The position numbers were made by a program, and so were the translations under genes. A stretch of 64,000 nucleotides of DNA, from positions 3,494-67,493 of the forward strand of contig DAOLDD010000014.1 in the NCBI GenBank assembly GCA_035327585.1, read 5' to 3'. This document shows positions 4,604 through 49,499 of this stretch, one piece after another. Position 1 is the first letter of the stretch. The number at the start of each line of letters is the position of its first letter. The notes below the pieces were generated by a model that saw only the letters and a list, made by a program, of their open reading frames with translations, did no database searches and was not told where the DNA came from. The stretch comes from Kiritimatiellia bacterium (lineage in GTDB: Bacteria > Verrucomicrobiota > Kiritimatiellia > CAIVKH01).

Positions 4604-5913
4604 TGCACCACGCGCACCCGCCCATCATCCTGCCGGAACACCAGCGCCTCAATCGTCATGCGCCGACCCTCCCGCTCCGCCCAGGCCTCCACGCGGAAAA
4701 ACTGACTGCGCACTTCGAGATACGGGCGCACCCGCTCATACGCCTCCACGCCCATCGTGAGCGACAATACGTCGAGTTGCCGGATCGGCCGGATGGCGCG
4801 CAGCGTCAGCACCGTGTCCACCATCCGATCCTGTTCCATGCCCAGGACGGCCAGCAGCGTCGCGCGCGGCGCTGAATTAATGTTGATCGGCAGCGGCCTC
4901 GTCCGCGCCACGGGAATCAGCGTGACCAGGTCCACGAATGTCGCGTCGAACGCACCGCCGCCCGCGAGCGCCCGGTCGCGACGCAGCAAATCCGCCTCGC
5001 CCCAGCCGTCGACGTGCGTCAACTCGCGCCAGCCATACAGGACGCGGTCGGGGCTGCGTTGCGGCGGGTTGAGTCGCCGGTAGAACTCCGCCTCGCGCGA
5101 GCCCGCGCGATCCGCGTCAATAAAGTCGCGCAGCGCCGCGGTGCGGCTCGCCGGGGAGAATTCGCCGCACAGCGTCTGCAGGTCCATCACGATATCCTCG
5201 CAAACGCGCGCGCCGGGCGTGGGCTCGGCGCCGAGGTTGTTCAGGTCGAAGCGCGCCTGCTCATCCCGCACGCGAACCGCGGTCGAAATACCCAGCGGCG
5301 TTTCGGCCCACTGGCGCGCCGCCCATACATCGTTCGTCGTGTCCACGCCGAGGTCCGGGTCGTAGGCGAGTTGCTGGAGCGCGGTGTGCACCGCGTCCAC
5401 GGCGGCCTGGCGGAGTTGATGCCGCTCCGTGGCGGCGCGCTCGTGCGCGGCCCGGGTACGCGCGAGCGCGTGGGACTGGAGCAACAGCGCCGCGACCAAC
5501 CCCGTGAGCACCAGCAGCAGCACGAGCACCCCGCCCTCGCGCGCGTCGGACGGTTTCGGAAGAACAGGTCGTGCCCGGCCCGGCGCCCGGCGCGCATCCT
5601 GTGCGCGGCGGAGACGGCGGCTGGGCGAACGGCGATCCCCCAGCCACTCCGGAAAAATCAGGAATACCCAGCGCGCGAGCAGCACCACCCCACCCCCCGC
5701 CCCAAAGTAGAGCGCCATCTCCAGCAGGCGCCGCCGCTGCGGAATCTGCGCGAACGCCGCAAACAACAGGAAGCCGCACGCGATGACCAGCGCGAGAATG
5801 CCCACGACCATGCCCAACAGGCGGAGGCGATGCCGCATGCCGCGAAACCAGGACCGGGATATGGGACGACGTGAAGCCATGAACCCCCGCACTATGGGAA
5901 ACCCGCCCCTCAC
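4579..5913 (-). CDS. GspK-like minor pseudopilin (type II secretion system protein K family); exact start uncertain
   Basis: Pseudopilin-like hydrophobic helix (GGVLVLLLVLTGLVAALLLQSHAL) followed by a GspK-like periplasmic domain with the characteristic ININSA...LLAVLGM motif. There is an N-terminal extension of about 120 aa with two further hydrophobic stretches, so the true start may be internal. Confidence 0.55.
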   Translation of the reverse strand: MRGGFPIVRGFMASRRPISRSWFRGMRHRLRLLGMVVGILALVIACGFLLFAAFAQIPQRRRLLEMALYFGAGGGVVLLARWVFLIFPEWLGDRRSPSRRLRRAQDARRAPGRARPVLPKPSDAREGGVLVLLLVLTGLVAALLLQSHALARTRAAHERAATERHQLRQAAVDAVHTALQQLAYDPDLGVDTTNDVWAARQWAETPLGISTAVRVRDEQARFDLNNLGAEPTPGARVCEDIVMDLQTLCGEFSPASRTAALRDFIDADRAGSREAEFYRRLNPPQRSPDRVLYGWRELTHVDGWGEADLLRRDRALAGGGAFDATFVDLVTLIPVARTRPLPININSAPRATLLAVLGMEQDRMVDTVLTLRAIRPIRQLDVLSLTMGVEAYERVRPYLEVRSQFFRVEAWAEREGRRMTIEALVFRQDDGRVRVVQWIEPEPA

Positions 5914-10117: not shown

Positions 10118-11415
10118 GACGCTCCCGGCTCCGGGCTCGACGGCGCGCCAGTCGGCGGGGCGGATTCAGCGGAGCCTCCGCGCGCCTCCGCGGCGGCGCG
10201 CACCGCGGCGGCGTCCTCCGGCGTGAAGCCCTCAATGGCCTGCAAATCCTCCACATCGGCGGCGAGAATGCCGTCGAGCGTGAGAAAGCCCGAGTGGACG
10301 AGCTGTGCCGCCCGCGTGGCGCCAATGCCGTCGATCGCGGCCAGCGCCGCAACGGCGTTGGCGACCTTCTCCTCGAAGCCGATCGCCGACTCATCCTTTT
10401 GGATGTCGATCTTCCAGCCGGTCAGCTTGGACGTGAGCCGCGCATTCTGGCCCTTCTTGCCGATGGCGAGCGAAAGCTGGTCCGGCGCAACAATGACATT
10501 CACGGTGTGCGACGCTTCGTCCACCGCGACCTTGGTCAGCTTCGCGGGCGCCAGCGCGTTCGTCACGAACACCTTGACGTCCTCGTTCCAGCGCACGATA
10601 TCGATTTTCTCGCCCGACAATTCGCGGACGATGTTCTTCACGCGGATGCCGCGCATGCCGACGCACGCGCCGACCGGATCGACCTTTTCGTCGCGCGAGA
10701 CGACGGCGATTTTGCTGCGGAAACCCGGCTCGCGCGCGATGCCGCGCATCTCAACCGTCTTGTCGTTGATCTCCGAAACCTCGAGCTCAAACAGCCGCTT
10801 TACAAAGTCGGGATGGCTGCGCGTCAGGACGATGCGGGTGCCGGAGGCATCGCTCGTCACATCGAGGACCAGCGCGCGAATCTTATCGCCCACCTGGTAT
10901 TCCTCAATGGGCACGCGCTCCTTGGCCGGCAGCACCGCCTCGGCGAAGCCGTCGAGCCCGAGAATCACGTCGCTGCGCTCGAACCGGCGCACCGTCCCAC
11001 TGACGATGTCGCCAACACGGTTCTTGTATTCATCAAACACCTTGTCGCGCTCCGCCTGGCGGATTCGGTTGAGAATCGCCTGCTTCGCCGTCTGCGCGGC
11101 GATGCGTCCGAAATTTTTCGGCGTCACTTCGACTTCAAGAAAATCGCCGAGCTTCGCGTCCGCCTTGATGCGCTGGGCGGCCTGAAGCCCGATTTCGTCG
11201 TGCGAGGCGCGCACGCGTTCTACCACCTGGACGCGTGCCAACGCCTTGATATCGCAGGTTTTGCGATCAATTTCGATGCGCAGATCCTTGGCAGGGCTGA
11301 CGCTCTTCTTGGAAGCCGTCATCAATGCGCCCTCAACGGCCTTGATCAGCGTCTCGCGCTCAATGCCGCGCTCGCGCTCCATATAGTCTAAAACTGCAAG
11401 CAACTCATTATTCAT
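10114..11415 (-). CDS. nusA: transcription termination/antitermination factor NusA
   Basis: N-terminal NusA domain, S1 and KH domains (GxxG motifs), and a C-terminal acidic repeat region; overlaps infB by 4 nt. Confidence 0.95.
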   Translation of the reverse strand: MNNELLAVLDYMERERGIERETLIKAVEGALMTASKKSVSPAKDLRIEIDRKTCDIKALARVQVVERVRASHDEIGLQAAQRIKADAKLGDFLEVEVTPKNFGRIAAQTAKQAILNRIRQAERDKVFDEYKNRVGDIVSGTVRRFERSDVILGLDGFAEAVLPAKERVPIEEYQVGDKIRALVLDVTSDASGTRIVLTRSHPDFVKRLFELEVSEINDKTVEMRGIAREPGFRSKIAVVSRDEKVDPVGACVGMRGIRVKNIVRELSGEKIDIVRWNEDVKVFVTNALAPAKLTKVAVDEASHTVNVIVAPDQLSLAIGKKGQNARLTSKLTGWKIDIQKDESAIGFEEKVANAVAALAAIDGIGATRAAQLVHSGFLTLDGILAADVEDLQAIEGFTPEDAAAVRAAAEARGGSAESAPPTGAPSSPEPGAS

Positions 11416-11467
11416 GACTTACACTCCAACCGGACCGCCGGTTGCCCCCATGCGACGCCGTGTCTAC

Positions 11468-11499
11468 AGACACAAAAGAGTGGGTTGTGACCCACTCTT
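11468..11499 (-). terminator. intrinsic-terminator-like hairpin with U-tract in the nusA 5' leader (candidate attenuator)
   Basis: On the minus strand, a 10-bp perfect stem (AGAGTGGGTC/ACAACCCACTCT flanking a 4-nt loop) is followed by UUUUGUGUCUGU. It lies about 55-85 nt upstream of the nusA ATG. Confidence 0.5.
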
Positions 11500-11856
11500 C
11501 GCCAGCGGCCGCACAGATAACCGGTATAGACTGCCCGCAGCAGCCATACCGGTCAAGTGGTAAAAGCGGCCATTGGCGTTTTGGATGTGATCCGACAAAT
11601 CCTCGTCTCACGCGGCGCAGGATTTAAGCTCACCGATTTCTCGCCTAATGCCCGGGTTAAACTATTGACCTCCGACCCGGGTTTTCGGATGCTTGATCGT
11701 TGGTGGGGAAGTCGTCTTCACCTGTCGGCACGCACTCGTGGGGTGTGCAGTGATGTCGAGAGAGGTAAACTTTAAGTTCGGGACAGCGTAGCTTAAGAAC
11801 TGTGGGCGGGGGCTCCCTTGGGGGGCGCGTCGGGCCGCTTGCGTCACAACGGGAAC

Positions 11857-13439: not shown

Positions 13440-14687
13440 ATGAACTCCTCCCCGTCCCGTGAACCCGTGCGCCCCATCGTGCTCGGCATTTGTGGCGGCA
13501 TTGCGGCCTACAAGGCCGTCGACGTCGCGAGCCGGTTGCGCAAGGCCGGCCACGATGTCCACGTGGCCATGACCGAGGCGGCCGCCGCCTTTGTCACGCC
13601 GCTCACCTTCGCCGCCGTTTCCGGCAATCCCGTCCTGGATCGCCTGCTGCCCGCAGCGGACGCCGGCGGCGAGCGTTCCTATCCACATCTCTATCCCGCC
13701 ACGCGCGCGGCGGCGTTCATCGTCCTGCCCGCGACCGCCAATACGCTCGCCAAACTCGCACACGGCCTCGCACCCGACCTCGTCGCAGCCTGCGCGCTCT
13801 CACTGCCCGCCGACTGCGCGCGCATCATCTGCCCGGCCATGAACGTGGAAATGTGGCGCAACCCTGTTGTACAGGACAATGTCCGGACCCTCGAAGCGCG
13901 CGGCTGGCTGCGCGTCGGCCCCACCAGCGGCGCGCTCGCGTGCGGCATGGAGGGCGAAGGTCGCCTGAGCGAACCGGCGGACATCGTCGCGACGCTGAAC
14001 GCGCAGCTCAACGCGGCGCGCTCGCTCGCGACCCGGCGTGTACTCGTGCTTTCGGGCCCGACGCGCGAGCACTTTGATCCGGTGCGGTTTATCGGCAATC
14101 CCAGCTCCGGAAAAATGGGCCGCGCGCTCGCCGAGGCAGCGGCCCGCGCGGGCGCGCACGTCGATTTCATCACCGGGCCCGTTCCGGAGGAAAACCTGCC
14201 GCGCCACCCCGCGATCACCATCGAGCGCATCACCAGCGCCGAAGACCTGCTCGCCGCCGCACGCGCGCGATTCGACGCGGCGGACATCGTGATTTACGCC
14301 GCCGCCGTCGCCGACTACCGCCCCGTACGGTACCAGCACGAGAAGCTGCCCAAACGAACCGGCGCGCTGACGCTGAATCTCGAGGCCACGCCCGATGTCG
14401 CCGCCGCGCTCAATGCGCAAAAACGTCCCGGCCAGGTCGCCATTGGCTTCGCCCTGCAAACGCATGACGGCGCCGCGAAGGCCGCGGAAAAAATGGCCCG
14501 CAAACAATTCGACGGCATCGTCCTCAACGCGCTCGACGCCCTCGGCGGAGACACCGGCGGCTACACGTGGATCGAACCCGGCGCCGCTCCCCAACCGTGG
14601 GGTACCCTCGCCAAACCCGACTGCGCCCTCCGCATCCTCGCCCGCGCCGCCGAATGGCTCGCCGCCAAACGCGCCGCTCAACCTTGA
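13440..14687 (+). CDS. coaBC: bifunctional phosphopantothenoylcysteine decarboxylase / phosphopantothenate-cysteine ligase
   Basis: N-terminal flavoprotein domain ([15 protein letters not shown]), C-terminal CoaB ligase domain (GNPSSGKMG), about 415 aa. Confidence 0.9.
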
Positions 14688-14730
14688 GCGAAATCGGGCA
14701 ATCACTCATCCAGGCAGCCCCCCCCTCGCA

Positions 14731-14757
14731 CCCCGCAAGGGGATGCTCCCCTTTTTA
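14731..14757 (+). terminator. putative intrinsic terminator downstream of coaBC
   Basis: Hairpin AGGGGA-TGC-TCCCCT (or the alternative CCCC-GCAA-GGGG) followed by TTTTTAAAG. Confidence 0.45.
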
Positions 14758-14937
14758 AAGTAATTCTCGAAAGTTTTGTCCTGTTGGTTGTAGCGACGGG
14801 ATTTCATCCCGTCGGCCCAAATCCGACGGCCGTCGCTACAGCGGTTCATGACAAAACCTTTGAGAGTTACTCCAGTTGTTGTAACCGAGCCCGCTGGCAC
14901 GGAACAGCCATCTTCAGCAGCATCCTATTTGCTATTT

Positions 14938-14978
14938 TGGGGGCTGACCCCATTTTGCCCCCATTTTGTCGTTTTGCC
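14938..14978 (+). terminator. putative intrinsic terminator (second, about 250 nt downstream of coaBC)
   Basis: Stem TGGGGGC...GCCCCCA followed by TTTTGTCGTTTTGCC. There is no annotated + strand CDS between the two terminators. Confidence 0.4.
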
Positions 14979-15002
14979 TGATCTTTTACAAACCGCGGCT
15001 CC

Positions 15003-15884
15003 CTATTCGCGTGGTTCGCGGGTACCCGCTTCGTCCGCGGCTGCACGCTGCATCAGCCAGTCGGCCAGCGCCTCGGCGCCCTGCAGCCAGCGAGGGCCGG
15101 GGCGCAGGAGCCAGTCGGACGGAATTTCGCTGCAAATCGCGCCGCGCTCGACCGCGGGCAAACGCCGCCAGCCGGGCCGGCGCGCCAGATAGCCCGCGCC
15201 CGGCTCGGCGCGCGGGATCATGTAGGCGAGCACAATCACGTCGGGCTTCTGCTGCAAAATCCACTCCGCGCTTACGTGCGCGTAAGGCCGGTCCAGCGCC
15301 GCGCCGAGATTACGTCCGCCCGCGAGTTCCACGAGGTCGTGCAGAAACGACGGACGTCCCGGCGTCGTCAGCGGATCACTCCATACCTCGACATACGTCA
15401 GCGGCCGCGCGCGCGCCGCCCAGTACGCGTCCACCCGCCGCGCCAGCGCATCGCGTCGCGCACGCGCATGCGCCACCCAACGCGCCGCGCCATCCGGATC
15501 GTCCAGCGCCGTGCCCAGCGCCTCCACCGCCGCCATCATCTGTTCCCAACTCTCGCACGGCAACCGCAGGAACTGGATGCCCGCCGCGCGCAGCGCATCC
15601 GCGAGCCCCGGCCGCTCCACGTCCGTACTCACCACCACGTCCGGCTTCGCGCGCAGCAGCCACTCCAGGTTCGGCCGCCCGAATGAACCGGCCACCGGCA
15701 GCGTCGCCGCCTCCGGCGGAAAATCGCACGCGTCCGACCGCGCCATGAGCCGGTCGCCCCACCCCGCGTCGTAAATGAGTTCGGTGAACGACGGCGCCAG
15801 GCTTGCGATCCGCCGCACGGGCTCGCCAGCTCCCGCCACGCGACACGCAGCCAGCAGGAGCAAAAAAATCAGAACATTGCGCAT
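15003..15884 (-). CDS. ABC transporter periplasmic substrate-binding protein, BtuF/FhuD-like (cobalamin/iron-siderophore/heme class)
   Basis: Signal peptide, then IASLAPSFTELIYDAGWGDRL and PDVVV...PDVIVL blocks typical of helical-backbone (class III) binding proteins; 293 aa. Confidence 0.75.
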   Translation of the reverse strand: MRNVLIFLLLLAACRVAGAGEPVRRIASLAPSFTELIYDAGWGDRLMARSDACDFPPEAATLPVAGSFGRPNLEWLLRAKPDVVVSTDVERPGLADALRAAGIQFLRLPCESWEQMMAAVEALGTALDDPDGAARWVAHARARRDALARRVDAYWAARARPLTYVEVWSDPLTTPGRPSFLHDLVELAGGRNLGAALDRPYAHVSAEWILQQKPDVIVLAYMIPRAEPGAGYLARRPGWRRLPAVERGAICSEIPSDWLLRPGPRWLQGAEALADWLMQRAAADEAGTREPRE

Positions 15885-16105
15885 GCCCCATTCCTACCAC
15901 GAACCCGTCGCACGGTCACGGACCACCGCCCGCCATCCGCCTCTTATAGGACTTTCCCAAGCTTTGTTTGCCCCCACCGGCCTTGCGCCGGTGGAGCAAA
16001 AGTTCCTCGGCTACCGGGACACAAGGGGATCACCCGCCATCCGCCTCGTCCGTTGACACCTGCAAGGGCGCGTGCAAATATGGCTCCACTTTTCGGGAGA
16101 TCATC

Positions 16106-16606
16106 ATGGCTGTACTCATGGGCATGTCGGGCGACGTCAAAGGGAAGACGTTCCCCATCGGGGACGAGGGACTAACCCTCGGGCGCCATGCCGACAACCA
16201 GGTCTCCCTCAACAACGCCACCGTCTCGGGCCACCACGCCGTCATCAAGCGCGAGGGCGACCAATATATCCTGCGCGACCTCGGCTCCACCAACGGCTCC
16301 CGCGTCAACTCGCGCGAGATCAAGGAATCGCCGCTCCGCCCGAAGGACCTCGTTCAGATCGGCTCCGTCGAATTCCTCTTCAATTCCGAGGCGATGAGCT
16401 TCGAGGACGCACAGGCCGTCTTCACCCGCACCGAGGTGCTCGAAACCAAGGGAGGCACGGAAATGCCGGAATCGTTCGGCAACATCTCCCCGTTCGGCGC
16501 GCGCCGCCGCGAGAACCTGACGATCTGGATTCCAATCATCGCCGTGCTCGGCCTGCTCGCCGTCGGCGTGGTGATTTACCTCCTCATCAAGCTGTTCACC
16601 GCCTGA
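16106..16606 (+). CDS. FHA-domain protein with a C-terminal transmembrane anchor
   Basis: FHA motifs (LTLGRHADNQVSL...SGHHAVI...LRDLGSTNGSRVN) and a C-terminal TM helix IWIPIIAVLGLLAVGVVIYLLI. Start set at MAVLMGM (the ORF-track start at 15968 is rejected). Confidence 0.8.
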   Translation: MAVLMGMSGDVKGKTFPIGDEGLTLGRHADNQVSLNNATVSGHHAVIKREGDQYILRDLGSTNGSRVNSREIKESPLRPKDLVQIGSVEFLFNSEAMSFEDAQAVFTRTEVLETKGGTEMPESFGNISPFGARRRENLTIWIPIIAVLGLLAVGVVIYLLIKLFTA

Positions 16607-21900: not shown

Positions 21901-22593
21901 ATGCTTACGCGTGCCGTTCGCCGTTTCCTGTGCCTGCTCATCGCGCCCGTCATGTTCACGGGCTGTGTGCAGGTGGAACAGACCCTTTCCCTGGACGCGG
22001 AGGGCGGCGGCGTGCTGACCGTCCAATACAGCATGACGCTCGAAAAGCTCGCCGAGCTCGAAGCCCGGGCTCGCGAGGAAGCGGGCGACGACGCGGATGC
22101 CGCGATCCCCTCCCCGCTGGCCTATGACGAGGCGCAGATTCGCGAAGACTTTAAGGAGTACGAACCGATGGGCGTCACCCTTCTTGAGGCGCGCACATGG
22201 GAGGAGGGCGGCTCCAAACATGTCCGGTTGAAAATGAAATTTACCTCCTTCGCCGGCCTCGGCCAGACCGAATTTCTGTCGGACCGCACGCTGAAACTGG
22301 TGCGCGTGGACGACGCGTATGAATTTTCGCAGATGGCGCCGGAATCCGCCGCCGTCGAGGACGAGATGTACGACTTCATGGTGGGCATGATGAAGGGCTT
22401 CCGCGCCACGCTGTCGATCGAGACGCCGGGCGACATCCTGGACAGCAATTCAGATGAAACGGACGGACGGAAGGCCAGTTGGCGTTTCGACCTTGCGAAG
22501 GATCCCGACGCGCTGAAGCGCGCGCAGCAATTGAATCTGCGCGTGCGCTTTTCCGCGGAGGGCCTGGCGTTGGCGGAATTTCCCGAACCGTAA
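21901..22593 (+). CDS. lipoprotein, hypothetical
   Basis: Signal peptide with lipobox (LIAPVMFTGC); 230 aa, acidic. Confidence 0.55.
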   Translation: MLTRAVRRFLCLLIAPVMFTGCVQVEQTLSLDAEGGGVLTVQYSMTLEKLAELEARAREEAGDDADAAIPSPLAYDEAQIREDFKEYEPMGVTLLEARTWEEGGSKHVRLKMKFTSFAGLGQTEFLSDRTLKLVRVDDAYEFSQMAPESAAVEDEMYDFMVGMMKGFRATLSIETPGDILDSNSDETDGRKASWRFDLAKDPDALKRAQQLNLRVRFSAEGLALAEFPEP

Positions 22594-22637
22594 GCGGACG
22601 CGCCCGGGCGCGAAGTAACAGCACTGGGGACGTAATC

Positions 22638-23699
22638 GTGGCGGCTTCACCCAAAACAGCGGATCTGCAGGCCGAGCTGCGCGCGCTCGCGGACGGGCTG
22701 CCCTTCCCGGTGATCGACCTCCCGGAATTTCACCGCGCGGACTTCAACCCGCCCTCGGTGCGCCAGGCGCGCAACTACATCGCGCCCGACTCCTCCATGC
22801 AGGCGGTGGGCCGTTTCCTGATCGAGCGCGGCACGGTCGAACTGCTCGGCCCGGAACTCACCCTTCAGTTGTTCACGGAAATCCACTGGTGCTGCGCGAA
22901 GATCCGCAAGATGAGCCGGGCGCGTTACAAGACCCCGGCCGCCGCGCGCGCGGCGCTGGTGAACGCACGGCGTCTGGTGTCGCGCATCGAAGGTGCGGAG
23001 GAGGAGCTCTTCATCGCGAACCGGCGCATGGTGGTCAACTGCATCAAACCGTACTTCTGGATTGGCCCCGTCTGGCTCGCGGACTTCCTGCAGGAGGGCT
23101 CGAAGGCCCTGGCGAACTCCGTCCGCAAATTTGATTACACGCGCGGCACGCCGTTCTATTCCTATTCTCAAAAGGCGGTTCAGAACCGGCTGCGAAATTT
23201 TTTTCGCGACCACGTGCGCGCCGGCAGTTTCGGCATCCGGCCGAGCCGCGAGATGCAGCTCATCAAGAACATCATCGACACCTGGAAGCGCGACTACGGC
23301 GAGGATCCCACGGACGAGGTCGTTGCGAAGATCGCGGACCTGCCCGCGGAACGTGTCGCGAAGGTACGCAGTTACGTGCACCAGTGGGAGCGCATGCCGG
23401 CTCCGCCCGTCTCGCTCGATGCGCTGTTCAACGAGGACGGCGGCAACCTGTACGAGGTGGTGGAGGATCCGATGGCGCGCGAGGCGTCGCAGGGCGCCGA
23501 GGTCGCCGAGGTGTGGAAGGCGATGGAGAAGCTGCCGGAACGCGCGCGTTACATCATGAAGCTGCGCTTCATCGAGGGCCGCACGCTGGAGGAAACCGGC
23601 AAGCTGCTCGCCCTCACCCGCGCCCGGATCAAGCAAATCCAGGACGCCTCCCTCAAGAAACTCCGCCAACTCCTGCGCAGCGAACCCCGCACCCCCTGA
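22638..23699 (+). CDS. RNA polymerase sigma factor, sigma-70 family (alternative sigma; regions 2, 3 and 4 present)
   Basis: Region 2 (FDYTRGTPFYSYSQKAVQNRL), region 4 HTH (RTLEETGKLLALTRARIKQIQDASLKKLR). Start placed at GTG 22638, because the ORF-track start overlaps the upstream gene; the exact start is uncertain. Confidence 0.75.
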   Translation: MAASPKTADLQAELRALADGLPFPVIDLPEFHRADFNPPSVRQARNYIAPDSSMQAVGRFLIERGTVELLGPELTLQLFTEIHWCCAKIRKMSRARYKTPAAARAALVNARRLVSRIEGAEEELFIANRRMVVNCIKPYFWIGPVWLADFLQEGSKALANSVRKFDYTRGTPFYSYSQKAVQNRLRNFFRDHVRAGSFGIRPSREMQLIKNIIDTWKRDYGEDPTDEVVAKIADLPAERVAKVRSYVHQWERMPAPPVSLDALFNEDGGNLYEVVEDPMAREASQGAEVAEVWKAMEKLPERARYIMKLRFIEGRTLEETGKLLALTRARIKQIQDASLKKLRQLLRSEPRTP

Positions 23700-41219: not shown

Positions 41220-41489
41220 TTAGCGCCGACCGGCCAGCACATGCACGCCGTCGCGGTGCGGGACCGTGCGGGATTTTTTCGCCTTTTCCACGCGGCTGGC
41301 CTTGCGGGCGCGGGCGCCCTCGGGTTTGAGCGTCTTCTCGTAGTGCTGGATGTAGAGGGGATTGTTGTACCCCTCGCAGCGGCGGTCTTTCCATTTGAGC
41401 GAAGGATGGTGGAAGATGGCGCAGGTTTTGCCGAGGTTGAGGGCGCACCCTCCACACTGCCGGACAGGCTTGATGCCCAGGACGCCCAT
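41220..41489 (-). CDS. small cysteine-rich protein, hypothetical (possible metal-binding)
   Basis: 89 aa with CGGC...C...C...C spacing (QCGGCALNLGKTCAIFHH...RCEGY); divergent from the c-di-GMP signalling gene. Confidence 0.35.
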   Translation of the reverse strand: MGVLGIKPVRQCGGCALNLGKTCAIFHHPSLKWKDRRCEGYNNPLYIQHYEKTLKPEGARARKASRVEKAKKSRTVPHRDGVHVLAGRR

Positions 41490-41650
41490 ATACAATTCCC
41501 CCTTGAGTTGCGAGGACTCTATCAGGTTCCCGCCAATTTCCAAGTGCAACAATAGCCCGCGATTGTGCTAGCATCCCGGCGACGCAAGGAATGCGGCATG
41601 GCGGTATTCGCCGACACGCCGGAAACATGCGGTGCGTCTGCCCTGGAGCC

Positions 41651-44254
41651 ATGAATAAATCGCCCGAAGACGGAATCCTGCCCGCGCACCGGAATCTGCA
41701 AAATATCCGCGTGCTGGTGCTGGACGATGAGGAGCCGGTCCGGCATTTGCTCCAGACCCTGCTCACCCGCAACGGCTGCATCGTGGAAACGGCGGACGAC
41801 GGGCGCGAAGGGCTGCGCATCCTGCTGCAAAAGGATTTCGATGTCGCGGTGGTGGACCTCCGCATGCGCGACATGGGCGGCTCGGCGTTTCTCGAGCAGG
41901 CGCGCAGCGTCTGGCCCTGGCTCGGTATCGTCGTGGTCACCGGCTACGCGGACGAGGAATCGGTCGCGCATGCGCGGCGCTTCGGCGTGACGCGCATCCT
42001 CACCAAGCCGATGAACACCCAGACGCTGCTCCGCAACGTGCTGGAGGAGGCGATCGAGAAGAAGGAGCTGGTCGAGATGTCGGCCAGCCACAGCCTGGAC
42101 CGCATCCAGGCGCAGCTCTCGCTGCTCCGCAGTTTCAGCGAATCGGCGCTGACCGCGGAAAACCTCGACGACGCGCTGCGCACGCTGAGCACCGGGCTCG
42201 GCAACCTGCTGCCCTGCGCGGCGGCGGGCATCCTGAATCTCGAGGGCGAGGAACCGGTCCTGCACCTGCACGCGCTGACGCCGGTGGCGCAGGAATTCCT
42301 GCTCAACGCGGAGAAGGAGATGATGCGGCGCTACGAGGCGCTCAGCGGACAACCCGCGCCGCGGGCCGGGCTGCGCGTCATCTTCGACCCGGCGAATCTC
42401 GACCCCAAGGGCGCCCAACAGGTCGGCAGCAGCTTCAGCGTGCCGATCATCGCGCACGGCGAGGTGCGCGGCATGTTGACGCTGGCCGCGGTCGCGGATG
42501 ACGCCTATTCCTCGCGCGACGCGTCCTTTCTCTACCACGCGGCGAACCAGCTCTCGACGGTATTGAGCGCGCTGGCGCGCATGCGGGAGCTGTCGGTGCG
42601 CGACGCGCTGACCTCGCTCTACAACCGGCGCGGGCTGGAGGAGGAGTTCCAGCGGGCGTGGCTGATGAGCCGCCGCTACAACTGGCCGATCGGCGCGGCG
42701 GTCCTCGACATCGACAACTTCAAGATTCTCAACGACACGCACGGCCACCTGGTCGGCGACCAGATCCTGCGCGAGTTCTCGAAACTCGTCCAGCAGGTGG
42801 CGCGCGAGTCGGACATCATCGGCCGTTACGGCGGCGATGAAATGGTCGTCATCCTCGCGCAGGCGGGCACCGCGGATTGCATCGCGTTTGGCGAGCGGCT
42901 GCTGCACGCGATGCGCCAGCAGGTGTTCTGCGTGGACCGGGGCCTCGCGCTGCAATTGACCACGTCGATCGGCGTATCCAGCAGCGTCAACGGCCCGGCG
43001 GACATGACCAGCGAGACGCTGATCGCGCAGGCGGACCAGGCCCTCTACATGGCGAAGAAGCAGGGGCGCGACCGCGTCTGCGTTTACCAGGCGGTGGCGC
43101 CGGGCGAGAAGGGCGTTCCATCCGCCCCCATCGCGCCGGAATCCGACCCGGCCCGCATGCGCGGGCGCGTGCTGGTCGTGGATGACGAACCGATGGTCGG
43201 TTCGCTGCTTTCGCGCGTGCTCCGCAAAAACGCCTACGAGGTGCAGGTCGAAACCACGGCCGCCGGCGCGCTGAACGCGATCCAGGAAAAGCCCGGCCAT
43301 TTCGACGTGATCCTCACCGATCTGAACCTGCCCGAGAAAAGCGGACTCGACCTGCTGGACGAGCTGCGCTCCATCGACGAGGGGATGATCAAAATCGTAA
43401 TCACGGGCCACGCGACGGTCGACAACGCGGTCGTGAGCCTGCGGCGCGGCGCGTACGATTTCATTGAGAAGCCCGTGCTGCCGGACGCCCTGATGGCGAT
43501 CGTCGACCGCGCCCTCGAATACCGCCGCCTGAAGCGCGAAAACGTCCGCTACCAGAACCACCTCGAGGAAATGGTCCGCGAAAAAAGCGCCGCGCTGCGG
43601 GAGGCGCTCCAGCAGGTGAAGGCCTCCTACGACTTCACGCTCGAGGCGATGGCGGCGCTGCTCGACGCACGCGAGCGCAACACGGCGCACCACAGCACGC
43701 GCGTACGCGACCTCTCCGTCATCATGGCGCGCGAACTCGGCCTCTCGGTGAACGAGATCGACGACATCTCGCGCGGCGCGCTGCTGCACGACATCGGCAA
43801 GATGTGCATTCCCGACAGCATCCTGCTCAAGCCCGGCCCGCTGACCGCGGACGAGCGCGAGGAGATGAAAAAACACCCCGAGGTCGGCTACAAACTGCTC
43901 TCGTCGAGCCCGCATTTGGAGCGCGTCGCGGAAATCGTGCGTTCGCACCACGAGCGGTACGACGGCGCCGGCTACCCGCGGCGGATCAAGGGGGCGGACA
44001 TCTGCCTGGGCGCGCGCATCTTCGCGATCATCGACTCGTACGACGCGATGCGGTCGGACCGTGTATATCGCAAGGCGATTTCCAGCGAGGAGGCGATGCT
44101 GGAAATCGAGCGCAACGCCGGGACGCAATTCGATCCGGCGTTGGTCGACCTGTTCAAGCGCATCCACCTGGCCATTGAGGCCGCCGGCAATTGGAGTGCG
44201 GCGGACGCGCGGTCGGCGTACGAAACGCCCGAAACCCGGAAGTATGGTTCATAA
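41651..44254 (+). CDS. multidomain c-di-GMP signalling protein: REC - GAF-like - GGDEF (GGDEM variant, RxxD I-site present) - REC - HD-GYP
   Basis: REC1 (VLVLDDEEPV...VVDLRMRDMGG...VVVTGY...LTKP); GGDEF domain (RYGGDEM with RESD five residues upstream); REC2 (VLVVDDEPMV...ILTDLNLPEKSG...IVITGH...EKP); HD-GYP (HHSTRV...LLHDIGK...HHERYDGAGYP). Start at ATG 41651 (MNKSPEDG). Confidence 0.9.
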   Translation: MNKSPEDGILPAHRNLQNIRVLVLDDEEPVRHLLQTLLTRNGCIVETADDGREGLRILLQKDFDVAVVDLRMRDMGGSAFLEQARSVWPWLGIVVVTGYADEESVAHARRFGVTRILTKPMNTQTLLRNVLEEAIEKKELVEMSASHSLDRIQAQLSLLRSFSESALTAENLDDALRTLSTGLGNLLPCAAAGILNLEGEEPVLHLHALTPVAQEFLLNAEKEMMRRYEALSGQPAPRAGLRVIFDPANLDPKGAQQVGSSFSVPIIAHGEVRGMLTLAAVADDAYSSRDASFLYHAANQLSTVLSALARMRELSVRDALTSLYNRRGLEEEFQRAWLMSRRYNWPIGAAVLDIDNFKILNDTHGHLVGDQILREFSKLVQQVARESDIIGRYGGDEMVVILAQAGTADCIAFGERLLHAMRQQVFCVDRGLALQLTTSIGVSSSVNGPADMTSETLIAQADQALYMAKKQGRDRVCVYQAVAPGEKGVPSAPIAPESDPARMRGRVLVVDDEPMVGSLLSRVLRKNAYEVQVETTAAGALNAIQEKPGHFDVILTDLNLPEKSGLDLLDELRSIDEGMIKIVITGHATVDNAVVSLRRGAYDFIEKPVLPDALMAIVDRALEYRRLKRENVRYQNHLEEMVREKSAALREALQQVKASYDFTLEAMAALLDARERNTAHHSTRVRDLSVIMARELGLSVNEIDDISRGALLHDIGKMCIPDSILLKPGPLTADEREEMKKHPEVGYKLLSSSPHLERVAEIVRSHHERYDGAGYPRRIKGADICLGARIFAIIDSYDAMRSDRVYRKAISSEEAMLEIERNAGTQFDPALVDLFKRIHLAIEAAGNWSAADARSAYETPETRKYGS

Positions 44255-44402
44255 GCAGCTTCGCCATTGTTGAGGGATCGCGCGAGGGGGAGGACCTGAC
44301 GGATCGGCATTCCCGGCGCGGCTTAAGTTGTTCATGTTTCCCGAACATCCAAAATATCCGGTGCCGAAGGGGGATCGCCGCAAGCGAAACCTGTCGCGCC
44401 CG

Positions 44403-45977
44403 ATGGCTTCGGACCGGCGTCAGGCCACCCGGTATGTCGGCAACTTCCCGGTGACGATCCATGTTGGACAGGGCGGGGACGCCCGCGTCTACAACGCTGT
44501 CGCCCGCGACATTTCTGATGGCGGCCTCCTGCTGGAATGCGCGGATGTACCGCCCGGGGAGACGCGAATCCGCGTGCAATTCAAAGTGCCCGAGGGCGTC
44601 ATGCCGGAGGAATTTTCGCACGGCGCCCAATCCACGGAAGGCGAGGTGCGGCGACGCGACGGCGATCGAAAGCTGCTGGGCGTGCAGTTCGCGCAACCGA
44701 TGAGCCGGCGGCTCGCGCGGACGACCTGGAACTATCTCCGGGGCATCGCGACCCTGGCCCTGATGGTCACCCTCGCCCTGATCGTCCTGATCAAGGTCGA
44801 GAATTTTTATTATTTCTGGTTCGACGTGCCCGTGTTCCTGTACAGCCTCGCGGTCGGCGCGTTCCTGCTCTCGCGCTTCCTGTTCGCGGCGTTCTACCGC
44901 GCGCCCCGGCCGCGGGATGACGCGAGCCTGCCGACCGTCAGCGTCATTTTTCCGGTGTTTAATGAGGAGGGATTCATCGAACGCACGCTGGTGCAGGCGC
45001 TCGAAGTGGCCTACCCCCTCGACAAATTGCAGGTCATCGCGGTGAACGACGGCAGCCGGGACCAGACCTTCCAAATCATGCAACGCGTCCAGCAACGGTA
45101 TCCCGAGCTGGTCCTCGTGAACCTGGAGAAGTCGATGGGCAAACGCGGCGCCATCGCCGCCGGCGCGCAACTGGCGACGGGCGAAATCCTGGTGCTCTCC
45201 GACTCCGACAGCTTTTTCCAGCCGGACGCCATCCGCCGGATCGTCGACGGGTTCACCGAACCGAAGGTCGCGGCGATCACCGGGCACTGCGACGTCGAGA
45301 ACGCGTGGACGAACCTGCTGACCAAGATGCAGACCGTCCGCTACTACATCAGCTTCCGCGTGATGAAGGCGGCCGAAAGCGTGTTCGACGCCGTGACCTG
45401 CCTTTCCGGACCCTTCGCCGCGTACCGGCGCGAGGTGTTCATGTCCGTGGCCGACCGGTGGCTCAACCAGCGCTGGTGCGGCGCGCCCGCGACGTTCGGC
45501 GACGACCGTGCGCTGACCAATTTTGTCCTGCGCCAGGGCCACGCGGTGATTTACGACTCGCGGGCGCGGTGCACCACCATCGTGCCGGAGGACTACCGCA
45601 CGTTCCTGCGCCAGCAGATGCGCTGGAAGCGTTCGTGGTTCCGGGAGTGCATGCGCGGCTGCGCCTACATCTGGAAATATCCGCCACTGGTCTCGCTCTC
45701 CTACTACTTGGGGTTCATCCTCCCGCTCGTCGCCCCCATCGTCGTATTCCGCGCCCTGCTCTACATGCCGCTCTTCCAGCGCGGCAGCCCGCTGATGTAC
45801 ATGCTCGGCATCCTGCTGATGAGCAGCTTGATGAGTTCGGTGTATCTCTTCACGCGCCGCTCGCGCCTGTGGATCTACGGCATCCCATTCTGCTTCTTCT
45901 ACATGTTCGTGCTGGTCTGGCAACTACCGTGGGCGATGCTCACCTCCGCCCACGCAAAATGGGGCACGCGGGGCTGA
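44403..45977 (+). CDS. processive family-2 glycosyltransferase (cellulose/PNAG/hyaluronan-synthase-like) with an N-terminal PilZ c-di-GMP-binding domain
   Basis: PilZ motifs RRQATR (RxxxR) and DISDGG (DxSxGG); GT2 core with DGSRD and LSDSDS acidic motifs and the Q(Q/R)xRW motif QQMRWKRSW; about 7 TM helices. An alternative upstream start is at 44328. Confidence 0.85.
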   Translation: MASDRRQATRYVGNFPVTIHVGQGGDARVYNAVARDISDGGLLLECADVPPGETRIRVQFKVPEGVMPEEFSHGAQSTEGEVRRRDGDRKLLGVQFAQPMSRRLARTTWNYLRGIATLALMVTLALIVLIKVENFYYFWFDVPVFLYSLAVGAFLLSRFLFAAFYRAPRPRDDASLPTVSVIFPVFNEEGFIERTLVQALEVAYPLDKLQVIAVNDGSRDQTFQIMQRVQQRYPELVLVNLEKSMGKRGAIAAGAQLATGEILVLSDSDSFFQPDAIRRIVDGFTEPKVAAITGHCDVENAWTNLLTKMQTVRYYISFRVMKAAESVFDAVTCLSGPFAAYRREVFMSVADRWLNQRWCGAPATFGDDRALTNFVLRQGHAVIYDSRARCTTIVPEDYRTFLRQQMRWKRSWFRECMRGCAYIWKYPPLVSLSYYLGFILPLVAPIVVFRALLYMPLFQRGSPLMYMLGILLMSSLMSSVYLFTRRSRLWIYGIPFCFFYMFVLVWQLPWAMLTSAHAKWGTRG

Positions 45978-45980
45978 CGC

Positions 45981-47903
45981 ATGGGCAAACGGCTATTCAT
46001 TCTCGCGCAGTGGGCGGTTCTGATCGCGCTGGTCATCCATGGCGTACGCACGGTGGCGCGCCCCGTCCCGCCCCCGGACTACGATCCGGATAGCTGGGCG
46101 TCCTGGCGCGGCTTCCACGCGCTCTCCTATGCGGGCGTCACGCGCGGCGGCGGCAGCGACCACGTCACCCCCCACCAACTCGCCGCGCACCTCCAGGCGC
46201 TGCGCGAAGCCGGCTATAAATCCATCACGCCCGGCGACATTGAAGCGTACCTCGAAGGACGCGTCGCCCTGCCGGACCGCGCCGTGCTGCTGCTGTTCGA
46301 GGGCGGGCGCAAGGACAGCTATCTCGCCGCGACCCCGCTCCTTCGGAAATCAGGCCAGGTCGCGGTGATGTGCGTGCCGACATTGTTGACGCGGCGATGG
46401 GGTAGTTTCTACCTGCGCGAGGGCGACTTGAAAAAATTCCTCAAGGACCCGCACTGGCGGCTCGCCAGCATGGGCCACGCCGCCGTCACCACCATTCCCG
46501 TCGCGGACGGCGAGGAGGGGCGCTTCCTCGTACGTCGCCAGCGCCTGAAAACGCATGTCGAATCCGAGGCGGAATACCGCGCGCGCGTGGAGCAGGACTT
46601 CGCGCGCGCCGCGGATATTCTGGCCCGTGCGTCGGGACAGCCCGTCGCGACATACCTGTTCCCCTTCGCCGACGCCGGGGCATCGCCCGGCGCGACGCCG
46701 GAAGCGATCGATGTGCTGCGCGCCGCCGCCGCGATGCACCACCGAATCGCCTTCACGCGCGCGGACGACGCGTTCAACGGGCCGGACAGTGATCCCATGC
46801 AACTCACCCGACTGCGCGTACGCGGAACCTGGGACGCCGCGCGGCTGCTCGAAGAACTGGCCCGCAGCGAGCCCCGCGACATTCCGGTCACCTCGCTTCC
46901 CGGCGCGCACGCCTGGTCGTTCGACGGCGCCGGATCGGCCCAGGACGGCGTGCTCCACCTCGGAGATGGCGCGCGCGCGTGGCTGCGCGGCAGCTCGGAC
47001 TGGTCCGACCTTCAAACGACCGCCGCCATCGAGCGGCCCGCCGGCGCCCAGTTGTCGCTCTACGCGCGGTACGCCGGCCCCACCCGCTACGTGCGCGTCA
47101 CCGCGAACGACGAAGGACTCCGCGTCCAGGAACGGCTCGGCGCAACGATGCAGACGCTCGCCTTCCTGCCCGCCACGAATACGCCCAACGGCGGCGCGGA
47201 GTGGACGTTGCGCATCAAGGGCAACCGCCTCTGGATGGAACGCCCCGGGACTCCGCCCGTCGGGCCGCTGCCGCTCACGCGCCATACAAGCCGCGGACGA
47301 ATCGGCTTCGAAGCCCGGGGCGACGGCGTCGGCGTACGGTCGTTTACCGCGCGGCAATTGCCGGGCCTCGCCGTGCGATCAGCCTCGCTCGCCGACATAC
47401 CGGAGGAACAGCGCCCGCGGACCAGCGTGTGGATGCCCCGCTGGTTCAACACGGAGCAACGGCCCGAATTCACCGGGGCGATGCGCGCCGACCTGCTGGA
47501 CGCCGCCGCGCAGGGCATCCAGGTCATGCCGTGGATCGACATGGAACATGGCGCGCCACGGCAGGATTTCGCCGCCGACCTCGTGGCGCTGTTCAGCGGT
47601 GTGGCGGAAGGCGCGCTTGTCACGCGTTTCGCCCTCTCCGCGCCTGACGATCCCCTCGCGGAGGCGCTGCGTCGGCAGGGGTACGGCATCCTGCAACACG
47701 TCTCGACGCACGCCGCGCGGCGACTCGCGCTGGACGGCCGGGCGGGTCGCGAAGGCGACTGGCTGCTCCTGGCGGGCAACCCGCTCGAAGCCGCCGAATC
47801 GCTCGCCGAATTGCAGCGCGGCATCCCGTCCACTCGCCTGCTCTGGATGACGGACAAGGATATTTACCTGCCGCCCGGCGTGCGGCGCGCGGCCGCCTAT
47901 TGA
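45981..47903 (+). CDS. PgaB-like exopolysaccharide modification protein (CE4-like N-terminal domain with a degenerate catalytic motif, plus a C-terminal glycoside-hydrolase-like domain)
   Basis: N-terminal TM, then a PgaB/IcaB-like block (HALSYAG...VTPHQLAAHLQALREAGYKSITPGDIEAY...LPDRAVLLLFEGGRKDSY), where LFEGG replaces the canonical TFDDG; 640 aa. Confidence 0.6.
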   Translation: MGKRLFILAQWAVLIALVIHGVRTVARPVPPPDYDPDSWASWRGFHALSYAGVTRGGGSDHVTPHQLAAHLQALREAGYKSITPGDIEAYLEGRVALPDRAVLLLFEGGRKDSYLAATPLLRKSGQVAVMCVPTLLTRRWGSFYLREGDLKKFLKDPHWRLASMGHAAVTTIPVADGEEGRFLVRRQRLKTHVESEAEYRARVEQDFARAADILARASGQPVATYLFPFADAGASPGATPEAIDVLRAAAAMHHRIAFTRADDAFNGPDSDPMQLTRLRVRGTWDAARLLEELARSEPRDIPVTSLPGAHAWSFDGAGSAQDGVLHLGDGARAWLRGSSDWSDLQTTAAIERPAGAQLSLYARYAGPTRYVRVTANDEGLRVQERLGATMQTLAFLPATNTPNGGAEWTLRIKGNRLWMERPGTPPVGPLPLTRHTSRGRIGFEARGDGVGVRSFTARQLPGLAVRSASLADIPEEQRPRTSVWMPRWFNTEQRPEFTGAMRADLLDAAAQGIQVMPWIDMEHGAPRQDFAADLVALFSGVAEGALVTRFALSAPDDPLAEALRRQGYGILQHVSTHAARRLALDGRAGREGDWLLLAGNPLEAAESLAELQRGIPSTRLLWMTDKDIYLPPGVRRAAAY

Positions 47904-47909
47904 GTCGCC

Positions 47910-49499
47910 ATGCACAACCGGTTTCCAGTCGCACTCCTCGTCGGCCAGGCTCTCCTGACGGTAGGCCTTCACGCGGAAACACCGCGTTCCGCCCTTTCGC
48001 TCATCCATGAATCGCGCGTGGCCGTGGGCCGCGGCGACTTGGGTGACGCCCGCACGGCGGCCCGCCAGGCGGTGGAGATTGATCCCGCCTATGCGGACGC
48101 GTGGAAACAATTGGGGCGCGTGCAGATGCTCGCGCGCCAGCCGGACGATGCGCTCCGCGCGCTCGACACCGCCCGCCAACTCAAACCGGGCGATGCGGAA
48201 ATCGAAGGCTGGTTGGGCCCGCTTTATCGGGATCTCGGCTGGTGGCATTGGGCAAAGGGCGACATCGCGTCGTCGATCGCCGCGTTCAACGATGCGCTGA
48301 AGGCGAACGTCCCGCGGCGACACGACGTCCTGCGGAGCTTCCAGGCTGTACTCGCCGAAAGCGATCACCGCGCCGAGGCGCTCCAGCTCCTCGAAAGTTG
48401 GGGCGATCCCGACATCTGGCGGGAAATCGCGCGCGCGAACCTCGACCAAGGCCGCCTGCTCGCCGCCGAACCGGCGCTTACGCTGCTTCACCTCGCGAAA
48501 GACGACCCAGTGCGAACGGACGTTCAACTCGCCCACACGCGCGCGATGCTGGGCGCTTGTGAGGACATGTCCGCGCTGATCCCGGATCCCGCGGAGCGCG
48601 CCGCCGCGTGGGACGACCCGCATGTTGACCTGGCCATCGAGGCCATTCTGCTCTGCAACAACGGAACCCTTACCTCACGACTCGCGCGGCTCCAGGCGTT
48701 GGAGCGCGAACCCCAACGGGACGTTTCCGAACGCATGCGGACAGCGGCCCGAACAGCGCTTGCACATCGGAACTTTGACCGCGCGTTCCGGATCTACGAC
48801 CGCCTGCTCGCGCGTGAACCGGACTGCCGCTGCTACCTGCGCGCCGCCTCCGCGGCCGAGGCCCTGCGCGGCACAAAGGGCGCCGCGCAATTTCTGGCCG
48901 CGCTGCTTCCCCGCTCCAGCGACGACGCCGTGCGCGCCGGAATCCAAGGCCGACTCGCGCGACTGGATGGACTGGCCGATGAAGCCGCGGCCCACTACGC
49001 GCGCAGTCTTTCCCTCGATCCCGCCCAGAACGACGTGCAACGCGAGTTATTCTTCGCCCTGGTCGAACTCGGACGCGAGGAGGAGGCCAGGCGCGTGGCC
49101 GACGCGCTCGCCGGTCGCGAGGCCGAGGGCGAAACAGAACTCCGGCCGATCCTCGCGGAAATGTGGAGCGCCCTCGCGGACCACGAACTCGCCCTCGCCT
49201 TCTGGGGCGCCCTCGCGGAGCGTCACCCCGGCAGCGCCTACTACACCGTCGAATGGGCTCGCACACTGCTGCGCGTCGGGCGGAGGGCCGATGCGATCGC
49301 CCGGCTGGAAGCGCTCACCGCGCGCGTCGCCGACGTCCCGGCGCTTGAATTGCTGGCACGCCTGCTCATCGAGGATCACCGGAAGGCCGAGGCGCTTCAA
49401 ATCGTCGAACAGGCGCTGGCCCTCGAATACACGACCTCGCTGCTGCAACTTCGGACACTTGCGGGCGGGATATCGGACGACGGGGACGCCTCACGATAG
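47910..49499 (+). CDS. secreted TPR-repeat protein (PgaA/PelB/BcsC N-terminal-like scaffold; no beta-barrel domain recognisable)
   Basis: Signal peptide [22 protein letters not shown], then more than 10 TPR-like helical repeats ([13 protein letters not shown]..., [14 protein letters not shown]..., [26 protein letters not shown]...). Confidence 0.7.

Follow-up and report, generated by a model that had tools for sequence, protein, structure and literature searches.

A Kiritimatiellia regulator that joins GGDEF and HD-GYP domains in one chain, each behind its own receiver

Main

How can a protein that carries both a synthase and a hydrolase of the same second messenger avoid a futile cycle? For proteins acting on cyclic di-GMP (c-di-GMP) this long-standing question has been called a "biochemical conundrum" (PMC2952852), and nearly all work on it has concerned GGDEF-EAL proteins whose sensors are shared. 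It is raised in a different form by an open reading frame (ORF) in a Kiritimatiellia bacterium (assembly GCA_035327585.1, contig DAOLDD010000014.1, positions 3,494 to 67,493; this whole stretch of 64,000 nucleotides is referred to below as the window), which encodes a GGDEF domain and an HD-GYP domain in a single chain, each behind a receiver (REC) domain of its own. We find that the predicted folds of its parts fit this architecture, and that the architecture and the residues on which cyclase, phosphodiesterase and receiver functions depend are conserved across a family of relatives, with few departures. Whether the regulator indeed works as two modules, a cyclase resembling PleD and DgcR and a phosphodiesterase resembling RpfG, separated by a disordered linker and each gated by its own receiver, is in our judgement an evenly balanced matter.

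Hybrids of this kind are uncommon. In a 2010 census, GGDEF/HD-GYP hybrids made up 74 of 1034 HD-GYP proteins (7%), whereas 68% of EAL proteins were hybrids (Seshasayee et al. 2010, PMC2952852). GGDEF is thus joined to HD-GYP much more rarely than to EAL, which agrees with the original prediction for this locus that most GGDEF proteins able to degrade c-di-GMP as well do so with EAL domains. Reviews also refer to such hybrids, as does the survey of Galperin & Chou 2021 (bioRxiv 10.1101/2021.11.05.467447). Full-text literature searches found no biochemical study of any GGDEF/HD-GYP hybrid, nor was a pairing with two receivers described in the texts that they covered, the architecture table of the 2021 survey lying outside that search.

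The regulator and its parts are as follows.

41651–44254 (+): whole ORF, REC1-GAF-GGDEF-linker-REC2-helix-HD-GYP, 867 residues plus stop
41690–42055 (+): REC1, about residues 14–135 as placed by a match to NCBIfam RssB, with D25, D26, the phospho-acceptor D69, T97 and K119
42158–42565 (+): GAF-like domain, residues 170–305 (GAF_2, E 4.5e-7, 30.6 bits against a cutoff of 28.6; Pfam GAF, 27.8 against 22.4)
42596–43075 (+): GGDEF domain, residues 316–475, with D353, D355, K358, N361, D370, R392, G394-G-D-E-M398 (42830–42844), K469 and R473; inhibitory site (I-site) R385-E-S-D388 (42803–42814) and R416
43100–43147 (+): inter-module linker, residues 484–499, disordered
43169–43504 (+): REC2, residues 507–618, with D511, D512, the phospho-acceptor D557, T585 and K607
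43481–43672 (+): long helix from REC2 into HD-GYP, residues 611–674
43646–44143 (+): HD-GYP domain, residues 666–831, with E675, H681, H713-D714 (the HD dyad, nucleotide 43787), K717, K727-P-G, H742, H766-H767-E-x-x-D-G-x-G-Y-P776 (43946–43978), D795, D798 and R804-x-Y-R807

Two enzyme modules in one polypeptide

A Pfam search gives the domain order REC1, GAF, GGDEF, REC2, HD-GYP. Response_reg is matched twice (E 6.7e-48 for the protein; best listed stretch, residues 507–618), GGDEF at residues 316–475 (E 2.5e-39) and HD_5, the HD-GYP family, at residues 666–831 (E 3.4e-42), values far beyond chance. The original prediction, made from the letters alone, of two receivers, a GGDEF and an HD-GYP domain in one polypeptide is thus confirmed, as is its view that each catalytic domain is preceded by its own receiver; the motifs that it named (RESD, GGDEM, HD and HHERYDGAGYP) are all in place, and the GAF domain of its proposed architecture is recovered just over threshold. 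The frame has a GC content of 0.89 at third and 0.42 at second codon positions, the composition expected of a real gene in a window of 65% GC. A further in-frame ATG upstream, at 41591, would lengthen the protein by 20 residues for which relatives show no conservation, and the 867-residue product of the 41651 start is identical to an NCBI protein (P0001).

That protein is labelled "MAG TPA: diguanylate cyclase [Kiritimatiellia bacterium]", a name that leaves everything but the cyclase out, so that better annotation is the present practical gain. The curated NCBIfam models do not capture it either: whole-protein scores fall under the cutoffs for PleD (NF007135, 214 against 474 bits), DgcR (NF047654, 190 against 500) and the NosR-family REC-HD-GYP proteins (NF053512, 317 against 400), the last being collinear over residues 507–842 with the whole REC-linker-HD-GYP model. 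By sequence, the regulator resembles a fusion of the PleD, DgcR and NosR-family types and is a member of none.

The folds agree with this division. In the AlphaFold2 (AF2) model, built from a 41-sequence alignment (mean predicted local distance difference test (pLDDT) score 83.7), the GGDEF domain spans residues 317–478 and the HD-GYP domain is all-helical at residues 681–858. Foldseek searches of the PDB match the N-terminal half to PleD, WspR and DgcR, and the HD-GYP domain to PmGH and, as its best structural match, PA4781 (template modelling (TM) score 0.82, root-mean-square deviation 1.9 Å). The best PDB sequence matches tell the same story, being DgcR, PleD and WspR for residues 310–477 (E 1.5e-39 to 1e-29) and PmGH, PA4781 and V-cGAP3 for residues 654–840. 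None of the 50 best Foldseek PDB matches listed combines GGDEF and HD-GYP.

A populous family of fused response regulators

A sequence search gave 120 clusters (90% identity), of which 117 are full length and align at 42–100% identity to the regulator; the Pfam sets listed for these 117 relatives carry the same families, and their named sources are all Kiritimatiellia, Kiritimatiellae or Kiritimatiellaeota. Among the genome-scan matches listed there is one true full-length relative, a Victivallales metagenome-assembled genome (MAG) with the same architecture (L007). An exhaustive search of 1.84 billion representatives with HMMER was combined with domain parsing, done locally, of the 150 top clusters (50% identity). 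The arrangement REC-GAF region-GGDEF-REC-HD-GYP is complete in at least 56 of these clusters; about 40 of the 150 show GGDEF-REC-helix-HD-GYP without the first receiver, some of which may be fragments, and 7 show REC-GAF-GGDEF-HD-GYP without the second. Any thought that the architecture is unique is therefore set aside: the family is populous and the exact protein is already in NCBI. The same parse includes a few very long proteins with two HD-GYP and/or two GGDEF domains (representatives P0131–P0275).

At the sequence level, the protein looks like two modular response regulators fused into one. Stand-alone counterparts of both halves exist, one being a REC-(GAF region)-GGDEF protein (P0201, 50% identity) and the other a REC-HD-GYP protein (P0219, 55%). 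We looked to them for split adjacent orthologues as evidence of fusion and rejected the idea, as neither contig shows the other half next door, the upstream side of P0219 being cut by the contig end. Matches outside the Planctomycetes–Verrucomicrobia–Chlamydiae (PVC) superphylum, in Spirochaetota, Chitinophagaceae, Terriglobia, Gemmatimonadota and others, were likewise rejected because they proved to be separate neighbouring genes, for example REC-histidine kinase or CheB beside REC-HD-GYP.

Catalytic residues of the GGDEF domain

Residues of the GGDEF domain were mapped by HMMER alignment to PleD, DosC, GcbC and the Geobacter Hypr GGDEF entry 6d9m. D353 aligns with PleD D327, N361 and D370 with N335 and D344, R392 with R366, D396 and E397 with E370 and E371, and K469 and R473 with K442 and R446, which are, in that order and by the standard assignments, a metal ligand, the guanine contacts, a phosphate contact, the motif acids and the transition-state residues of PleD. 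The I-site R385-x-x-D388 falls on R359-x-x-D362, at the same six-residue distance from the first glycine, and R416 on R390, the I-site of PleD and its secondary arginine. Every PleD-equivalent metal, guanine, phosphate and transition-state residue is therefore present together with an RxxD I-site, in keeping with the earlier claims that the aspartate and glutamate of GGDEM are retained and that RESD is an inhibitory I-site.

Across the 117 relatives, the catalytic and I-site residues are conserved in 114–117 (R385 in 114, D388 in 115; those aligned with the PleD metal, guanine, phosphate and transition-state residues in 116–117), the secondary R416 in 109, and 24% of the columns of the domain are conserved at 90% or more. 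The fifth residue of the motif varies: it is F in 52 relatives, M in 28, L in 14, V in 12, I in 7 and T in 2. At 53% identity or more to the regulator it is never F (M, V, I, L, T or A), whereas below 53% it is mostly F, a clade-wide distribution from which GGDEM appears to be a hydrophobic drift at the level of the clade and not a peculiarity of this gene. The 65 relatives without F keep all 14 catalytic and I-site residues in every case, and those with M diverge down to 44% identity. Alignment to PleD thus upholds the retention of all catalytic residues, but the view of GGDEM as unusual does not hold within the family.

The HD-GYP domain

The HD-GYP domain was aligned with PmGH (4mcw), PA4781 (4r8z) and V-cGAP3 (5z7c), using the metal-ligand list of Bellini et al. 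(PMC4159591) and criteria from that paper and from Galperin & Chou (bioRxiv 10.1101/2021.11.05.467447). Of the eight metal ligands of PmGH, seven have counterparts (H681, H713, D714, H742, H766, H767 and D795, for H189, H221, D222, H250, H276, H277 and D305), as are equivalents of D183 and K225 (E675 and K717). The GYP, KPG (residues 727–729) and R804-V-Y-R807 motifs are intact, and Galperin & Chou link RxY[K/R] to c-di-GMP specificity. Degeneration to a receptor-only protein through loss of catalytic residues, for which we looked by alignment, is seen in neither catalytic domain.

Among the domains of the chain HD-GYP ranks first in conservation, with 31% of columns conserved at 90% or more, a constraint about equal to that on GGDEF. 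The core HD-GYP residues are kept in 115–117 of the 117 relatives except at H767 (H in 82, Q in 35). This position (43949–43951), a metal ligand in PmGH (H277), is His in the regulator; in the Gln-bearing relatives the hydrolase may be altered or reduced, to judge from the substitution.

Receivers, linker and helix

Both receivers carry the full D-D-D-T-K set, complete and near-invariant: D69 and K119 of REC1 are each found in 116 of the 117 relatives, and D557 and K607 of REC2 in all 117. The AF2 model gives REC1 a (βα)5 fold at residues 20–120 and places REC2 at residues 505–606. The two are 29% identical, on which ground a recent duplication was rejected; such divergence suggests that they probably have different partners.

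Between REC1 and the cyclase, the model has three linker helices (residues 123–186), a GAF-type α/β domain (191–280) and a long helix (288–316) running into GGDEF. The GAF-like domain is the least conserved folded part, with 6% of columns conserved at 90% or more. The two modules are joined by a segment (residues 479–503) that has no conserved column, varies from 22 to 59 residues in length across relatives and is modelled as disordered (pLDDT below 50 at residues 484–499). Beyond REC2, by contrast with this linker, lies a single continuous helix of 64 residues, as conserved as the catalytic domain that it enters (31% of columns at 90% or more). From the model, it is a probable signalling or dimerization helix and may form a coiled-coil element.

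Genomic surroundings

Downstream of the regulator lies a block of three genes.

44328–45977 (+): PilZ-GT2 synthase, 549 residues, an N-terminal PilZ domain (RRQATR, DISDGG) and a processive family-2 glycosyltransferase (GT2; QQMRW), 73 bp downstream of the regulator
45981–47903 (+): PgaB-like protein, 640 residues, 3 bp beyond the synthase gene, with weak similarity to the deacetylase PgaB that stays under the cutoff (NCBIfam, 57 bits, E 8.9e-16)
47910–49499 (+): tetratricopeptide repeat (TPR) protein, 529 residues, with Pfam TPR families and a weak PgaA TPR match, its position conserved in related loci

The synthase matches Pfam PilZ (E 5.3e-10, 40 bits against a cutoff of 22.5) and Glycos_transf_2 (E 2.3e-27), and its best NCBIfam matches are NodC (167 bits) and PgaC (134 bits), neither of which reaches its cutoff. 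A regular expression finds the PilZ patterns RxxxR and D/NxSxxG in 12 of 12 homologues, the D/NxSxxG of two of them (L092, L099) being possibly a chance earlier match. The PgaB-like gene always stands behind the synthase gene in related loci, and the three genes are conserved together in 13 metagenome loci (L092–L104). The equivalog cutoffs are missed throughout (PgaC 134 against 422 bits, PgaB 57 against 322, PgaA 34 against 367), and the block (44328–49499) resembles, in organization only, a PilZ-gated Pga-like polysaccharide secretion system. The synthase is likely a c-di-GMP receptor or target, and the block is the obvious candidate to receive the signal of the regulator. No terminator-like site was found in the 73-bp gap between the two genes, and no Rfam element or riboswitch at E ≤1 in the window between 40 and 50 kb.

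Several relatives of the regulator sit among polysaccharide genes. One of them (L089, 52% identical) has GT2, GT1 and deacetylase genes upstream and, downstream, a hybrid kinase (PAS-HisKA-HATPase-REC) along with a single-domain receiver and another kinase (9960–11531, 14481–16223). These kinases are a possible lead to the cognate kinases of the family; it is in this one relative only that a PAS-HK-REC gene adjoins the regulator.

Upstream of the regulator, Pfam identifies housekeeping genes: an ABC exporter, a thioredoxin reductase, a dUTPase-like gene and a type I dehydroquinase. The intervening 480-bp gap holds a small Cys-rich ORF of at most 110 residues (41220–41552, minus strand; GC content of 0.80 at third codon positions) for which no Pfam or NCBIfam family was found, the sole match being a sub-threshold DUF6811. 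Elsewhere in the window, two adjacent ORFs of 454 and 444 residues (3239–4603 and 4579–5913, both minus strand) have a gene-like composition and no Pfam match at E ≤1e-5, and overlapping ORFs on the opposite strand leave their true frame uncertain. A further ORF of 406 residues (22479–23699, plus strand) matches only sigma-70 region 4 families at that threshold, at its C terminus, its long N-terminal part being without a match.

Proposed mechanism

By analogy with characterized proteins, we infer that both domains are active and under phosphorylation control, as well as what they produce and which target they serve. The regulator would be a cytoplasmic, orphan "double response regulator", that is, two complete signalling enzymes in one chain. 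Phosphorylation of D69 would alter the packing of the linker helices and the GAF domain and thereby, as in DgcR and PleD, bring two GGDEF domains together, which would condense two GTP into c-di-GMP; this product would in turn bind the I-site formed by RESD and R416 and limit output. In the C-terminal module, a phosphate on D557 would signal along the conserved helix of 64 residues and so activate the HD-GYP hydrolase, a metal-dependent and probably binuclear enzyme that would open c-di-GMP to the linear dinucleotide pGpG and/or to GMP. Since the linker is flexible and variable in length and the receivers are unrelated, the two phosphorylation states would set net c-di-GMP output independently. 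One probable consumer in this genome would be the PilZ-gated, Pga-like synthase 73 bp downstream. Control of each module by its receiver has precedent, being established for the GGDEF activity of DgcR (PMC8041772) and reported for the HD-GYP activity of RpfG-family proteins, and the original prediction of two phosphorylation inputs on opposing activities is a reasonable reading of the anatomy.

A bolder version, which we find doubtful, would make the protein a self-contained c-di-GMP pulse generator or toggle. Two kinases, or one with different kinetics on the two unrelated receivers, would switch synthesis and hydrolysis reciprocally, and the tethered HD-GYP domain would contact GGDEF in a covalent version of the Xanthomonas RpfG-GGDEF complexes, so that the product is local and then erased. 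If true, c-di-GMP could be delivered locally, for example to the adjacent PilZ-gated synthase, and the family would offer a natural, genetically simple model of how hybrids avoid a futile cycle.

Weighing the alternatives

Returning to two receiver-gated enzymes in one chain, a number of observations weigh against that proposal, and those that concern its wiring are taken first. The AF2 model has a predicted TM score of 0.42, at which the relative placement of domains is uninformative, and this placement was not used. The larger ORFs of the window, when scanned, included no histidine kinase (HisKA/HATPase). As for the proposed target, an 81%-identical orthologue has window-like flanks on both sides and lacks the block (L090), from which it follows that the 5.2-kb block was inserted or deleted; the block is also absent beside seven further relatives, and among the six synthase loci with a full 6 kb upstream, the regulator is present in one. 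The block does stand beside 66–68%-identical orthologues in three loci (L001, L002, L098), with an upstream context that differs from the window. A dedicated partnership was rejected, given L090, the lack of the block beside most other relatives and the lack of the regulator beside most synthase blocks; the linkage is facultative and recurs in two lineages with different flanks, the window and the three loci just named.

The remaining points concern catalysis, and each has its own rival. The one that survives best, which we consider unlikely but take seriously, holds that the protein is a phosphodiesterase in which GGDEM is an allosteric nucleotide sensor, binding GTP (A-site), c-di-GMP (I-site) or both and tuning HD-GYP with no synthesis, a role that degenerate GGDEF domains have in phosphodiesterases of the GGDEF-EAL type. 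The substitution of M398 for Phe is the only departure from the canonical motif, the other four of five positions being canonical, and M, L, I and V are conservative swaps for a buried hydrophobic residue; against this stand the absence of F throughout the subclade at least 53% identical and, in PMC4331095, which cites Malone 2007, a report that F-to-L at the fifth position inactivates WspR. The conserved residues are the very ones required for mere binding of GTP/Mg or c-di-GMP, so their conservation cannot tell an enzyme from a sensor; K469, R473 and both motif acids are nevertheless invariant, also in the divergent M group, and no known degenerate signature (such as GEDEF or GGDQF) is seen. 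One dominant activity is frequent in hybrid proteins (PMC6205966; PMC12943098), whereas nearly all GGDEF/HD-GYP hybrids of the 2010 census have an intact cyclase site (PMC2952852), and a mere sensor would leave REC1 without an obvious output. A review lists GGDEM among the motifs of identified cyclases, a listing whose source was not traced. It is this point, the WspR substitution against the conserved residues, that is the main reason why our confidence in bifunctionality stands at about one half.

The converse rival, an improbable one in our view, keeps the cyclase and makes HD-GYP a protein-interaction module, a c-di-GMP- or pGpG-binding module or a means of pGpG clearance only, like inactive RpfG-family proteins and RpfG-GGDEF complexes; regulatory protein–protein interactions are indeed known for HD-GYP domains. 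It draws on N677, which aligns with E185, the third-metal bridging ligand of PmGH and a position where the regulator has no carboxylate. The HD dyad and the seven core metal ligands, a check of which the original prediction proposed, are present, whereas this third-metal ligand is not. N677 matches neither the E/D-T-G nor the Y/F subgroup signature, and the position is variable in the family (S 40, A 23, T 13, E 10, N 9, G 9). PA4781 likewise has neither Glu nor Asp there, according to Galperin and Chou. From the published split of HD-GYP proteins into tri- and binuclear types, a binuclear site is predicted, and the product (pGpG or GMP) and rate are uncertain with the third ligand missing; binuclear HD-GYPs are active phosphodiesterases that vary in whether they stop at pGpG (PMC4159591; bioRxiv 10.1101/2021.11.05.467447). 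The substitution of H767 in some relatives also speaks for a non-catalytic module, but the intact core ligands, the D183/K225 equivalents, the GYP, KPG and RxYR motifs and the rank of HD-GYP as the most conserved domain argue for a working hydrolase.

Very improbable is a third reading, in which a Hypr-type synthase and a V-cGAP-type hydrolase act on 3'3'-cGAMP (cyclic GMP–AMP) or a mixture. V-cGAP3 is among the top HD-GYP sequence matches, and the N-terminal half resembles the Geobacter REC/GAF-annotated entry 6d9m. The guanine-selecting position, D370, is nevertheless Asp in 117 of 117 relatives, not the Ser of 6d9m, so c-di-GMP is the predicted product; the HD-GYP domain has RxY[K/R] and not the RxxQ/N that Galperin & Chou link to cGAMP preference; and the PilZ domain of the neighbour is of the c-di-GMP type. 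Finally, that two adjacent response-regulator genes were joined by a sequencing error is refuted, even though the source is a MAG and REC-containing genes elsewhere adjoin REC-HD-GYP genes as separate ORFs: one continuous frame crosses the linker in 117 independent full-length relatives from many samples, and the same collinear architecture in at least 56 clusters at 50% identity excludes an assembly artefact.

With two receiver-gated enzymes as the preferred reading, the family would be a cleaner case than GGDEF-EAL proteins for the futile-cycle problem, as a separate receiver, with a defined phospho-acceptor (D69 or D557), stands before each activity and the halves could be switched separately. 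Work on the regulator would be the first biochemistry on a GGDEF/HD-GYP hybrid, on a natural non-F GGDEx motif and on c-di-GMP signalling in Kiritimatiellota. Its value lies in its tractability for the hybrid-enzyme problem and not in any surprise.

Comparison with known systems

The neighbouring block shares with the Pga (poly-N-acetylglucosamine, PNAG) and BcsA-type synthases a processive GT2 with QxxRW, PgaB-like and TPR (PgaA-like) partners and a c-di-GMP receptor element, and differs in that all NCBIfam scores are far under their cutoffs. Pga systems sense c-di-GMP through the PgaC/PgaD interface and BcsA through a C-terminal PilZ domain, next to which an N-terminal PilZ on the synthase is unusual.

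The regulator itself can be compared one half at a time. With DgcR (a Leptospira REC-GGDEF protein, 6zxm), PleD and WspR it has in common the receiver, the helical linker, the GGDEF domain, the RxxD I-site and all catalytic residues; it differs in the GAF-like domain between REC and GGDEF and in the GGDEM motif. The RpfG-family REC-HD-GYP proteins, including the NosR family, and the PmGH and PA4781 structures share its core metal ligands, GYP, KPG and RxY[K/R], whereas here REC-HD-GYP is fused behind a cyclase module and N677 occupies the position of PmGH E185.

As a whole, the chain belongs with the hybrid class described in PMC2952852 and bioRxiv 10.1101/2021.11.05.467447: one chain, with GGDEF upstream of a C-terminal HD-GYP, an essentially intact GGDEF site and sensory partners. 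The partners described there are mostly PAS domains, as in REC-PAS-PocR-GGDEF-HD-GYP, with MASE9-HD-GYP-GAF-GGDEF as a further example; in the regulator, a second receiver stands between GGDEF and HD-GYP, so that each enzyme has its own REC. With the bifunctional GGDEF-EAL enzymes (PMC12943098, PMC9683572), it would share opposing synthesis and hydrolysis in one polypeptide and a balance set by sensory domains, but its hydrolase has the HD-GYP fold and not that of EAL, and two separate receiver inputs take the place of shared N-terminal sensors.

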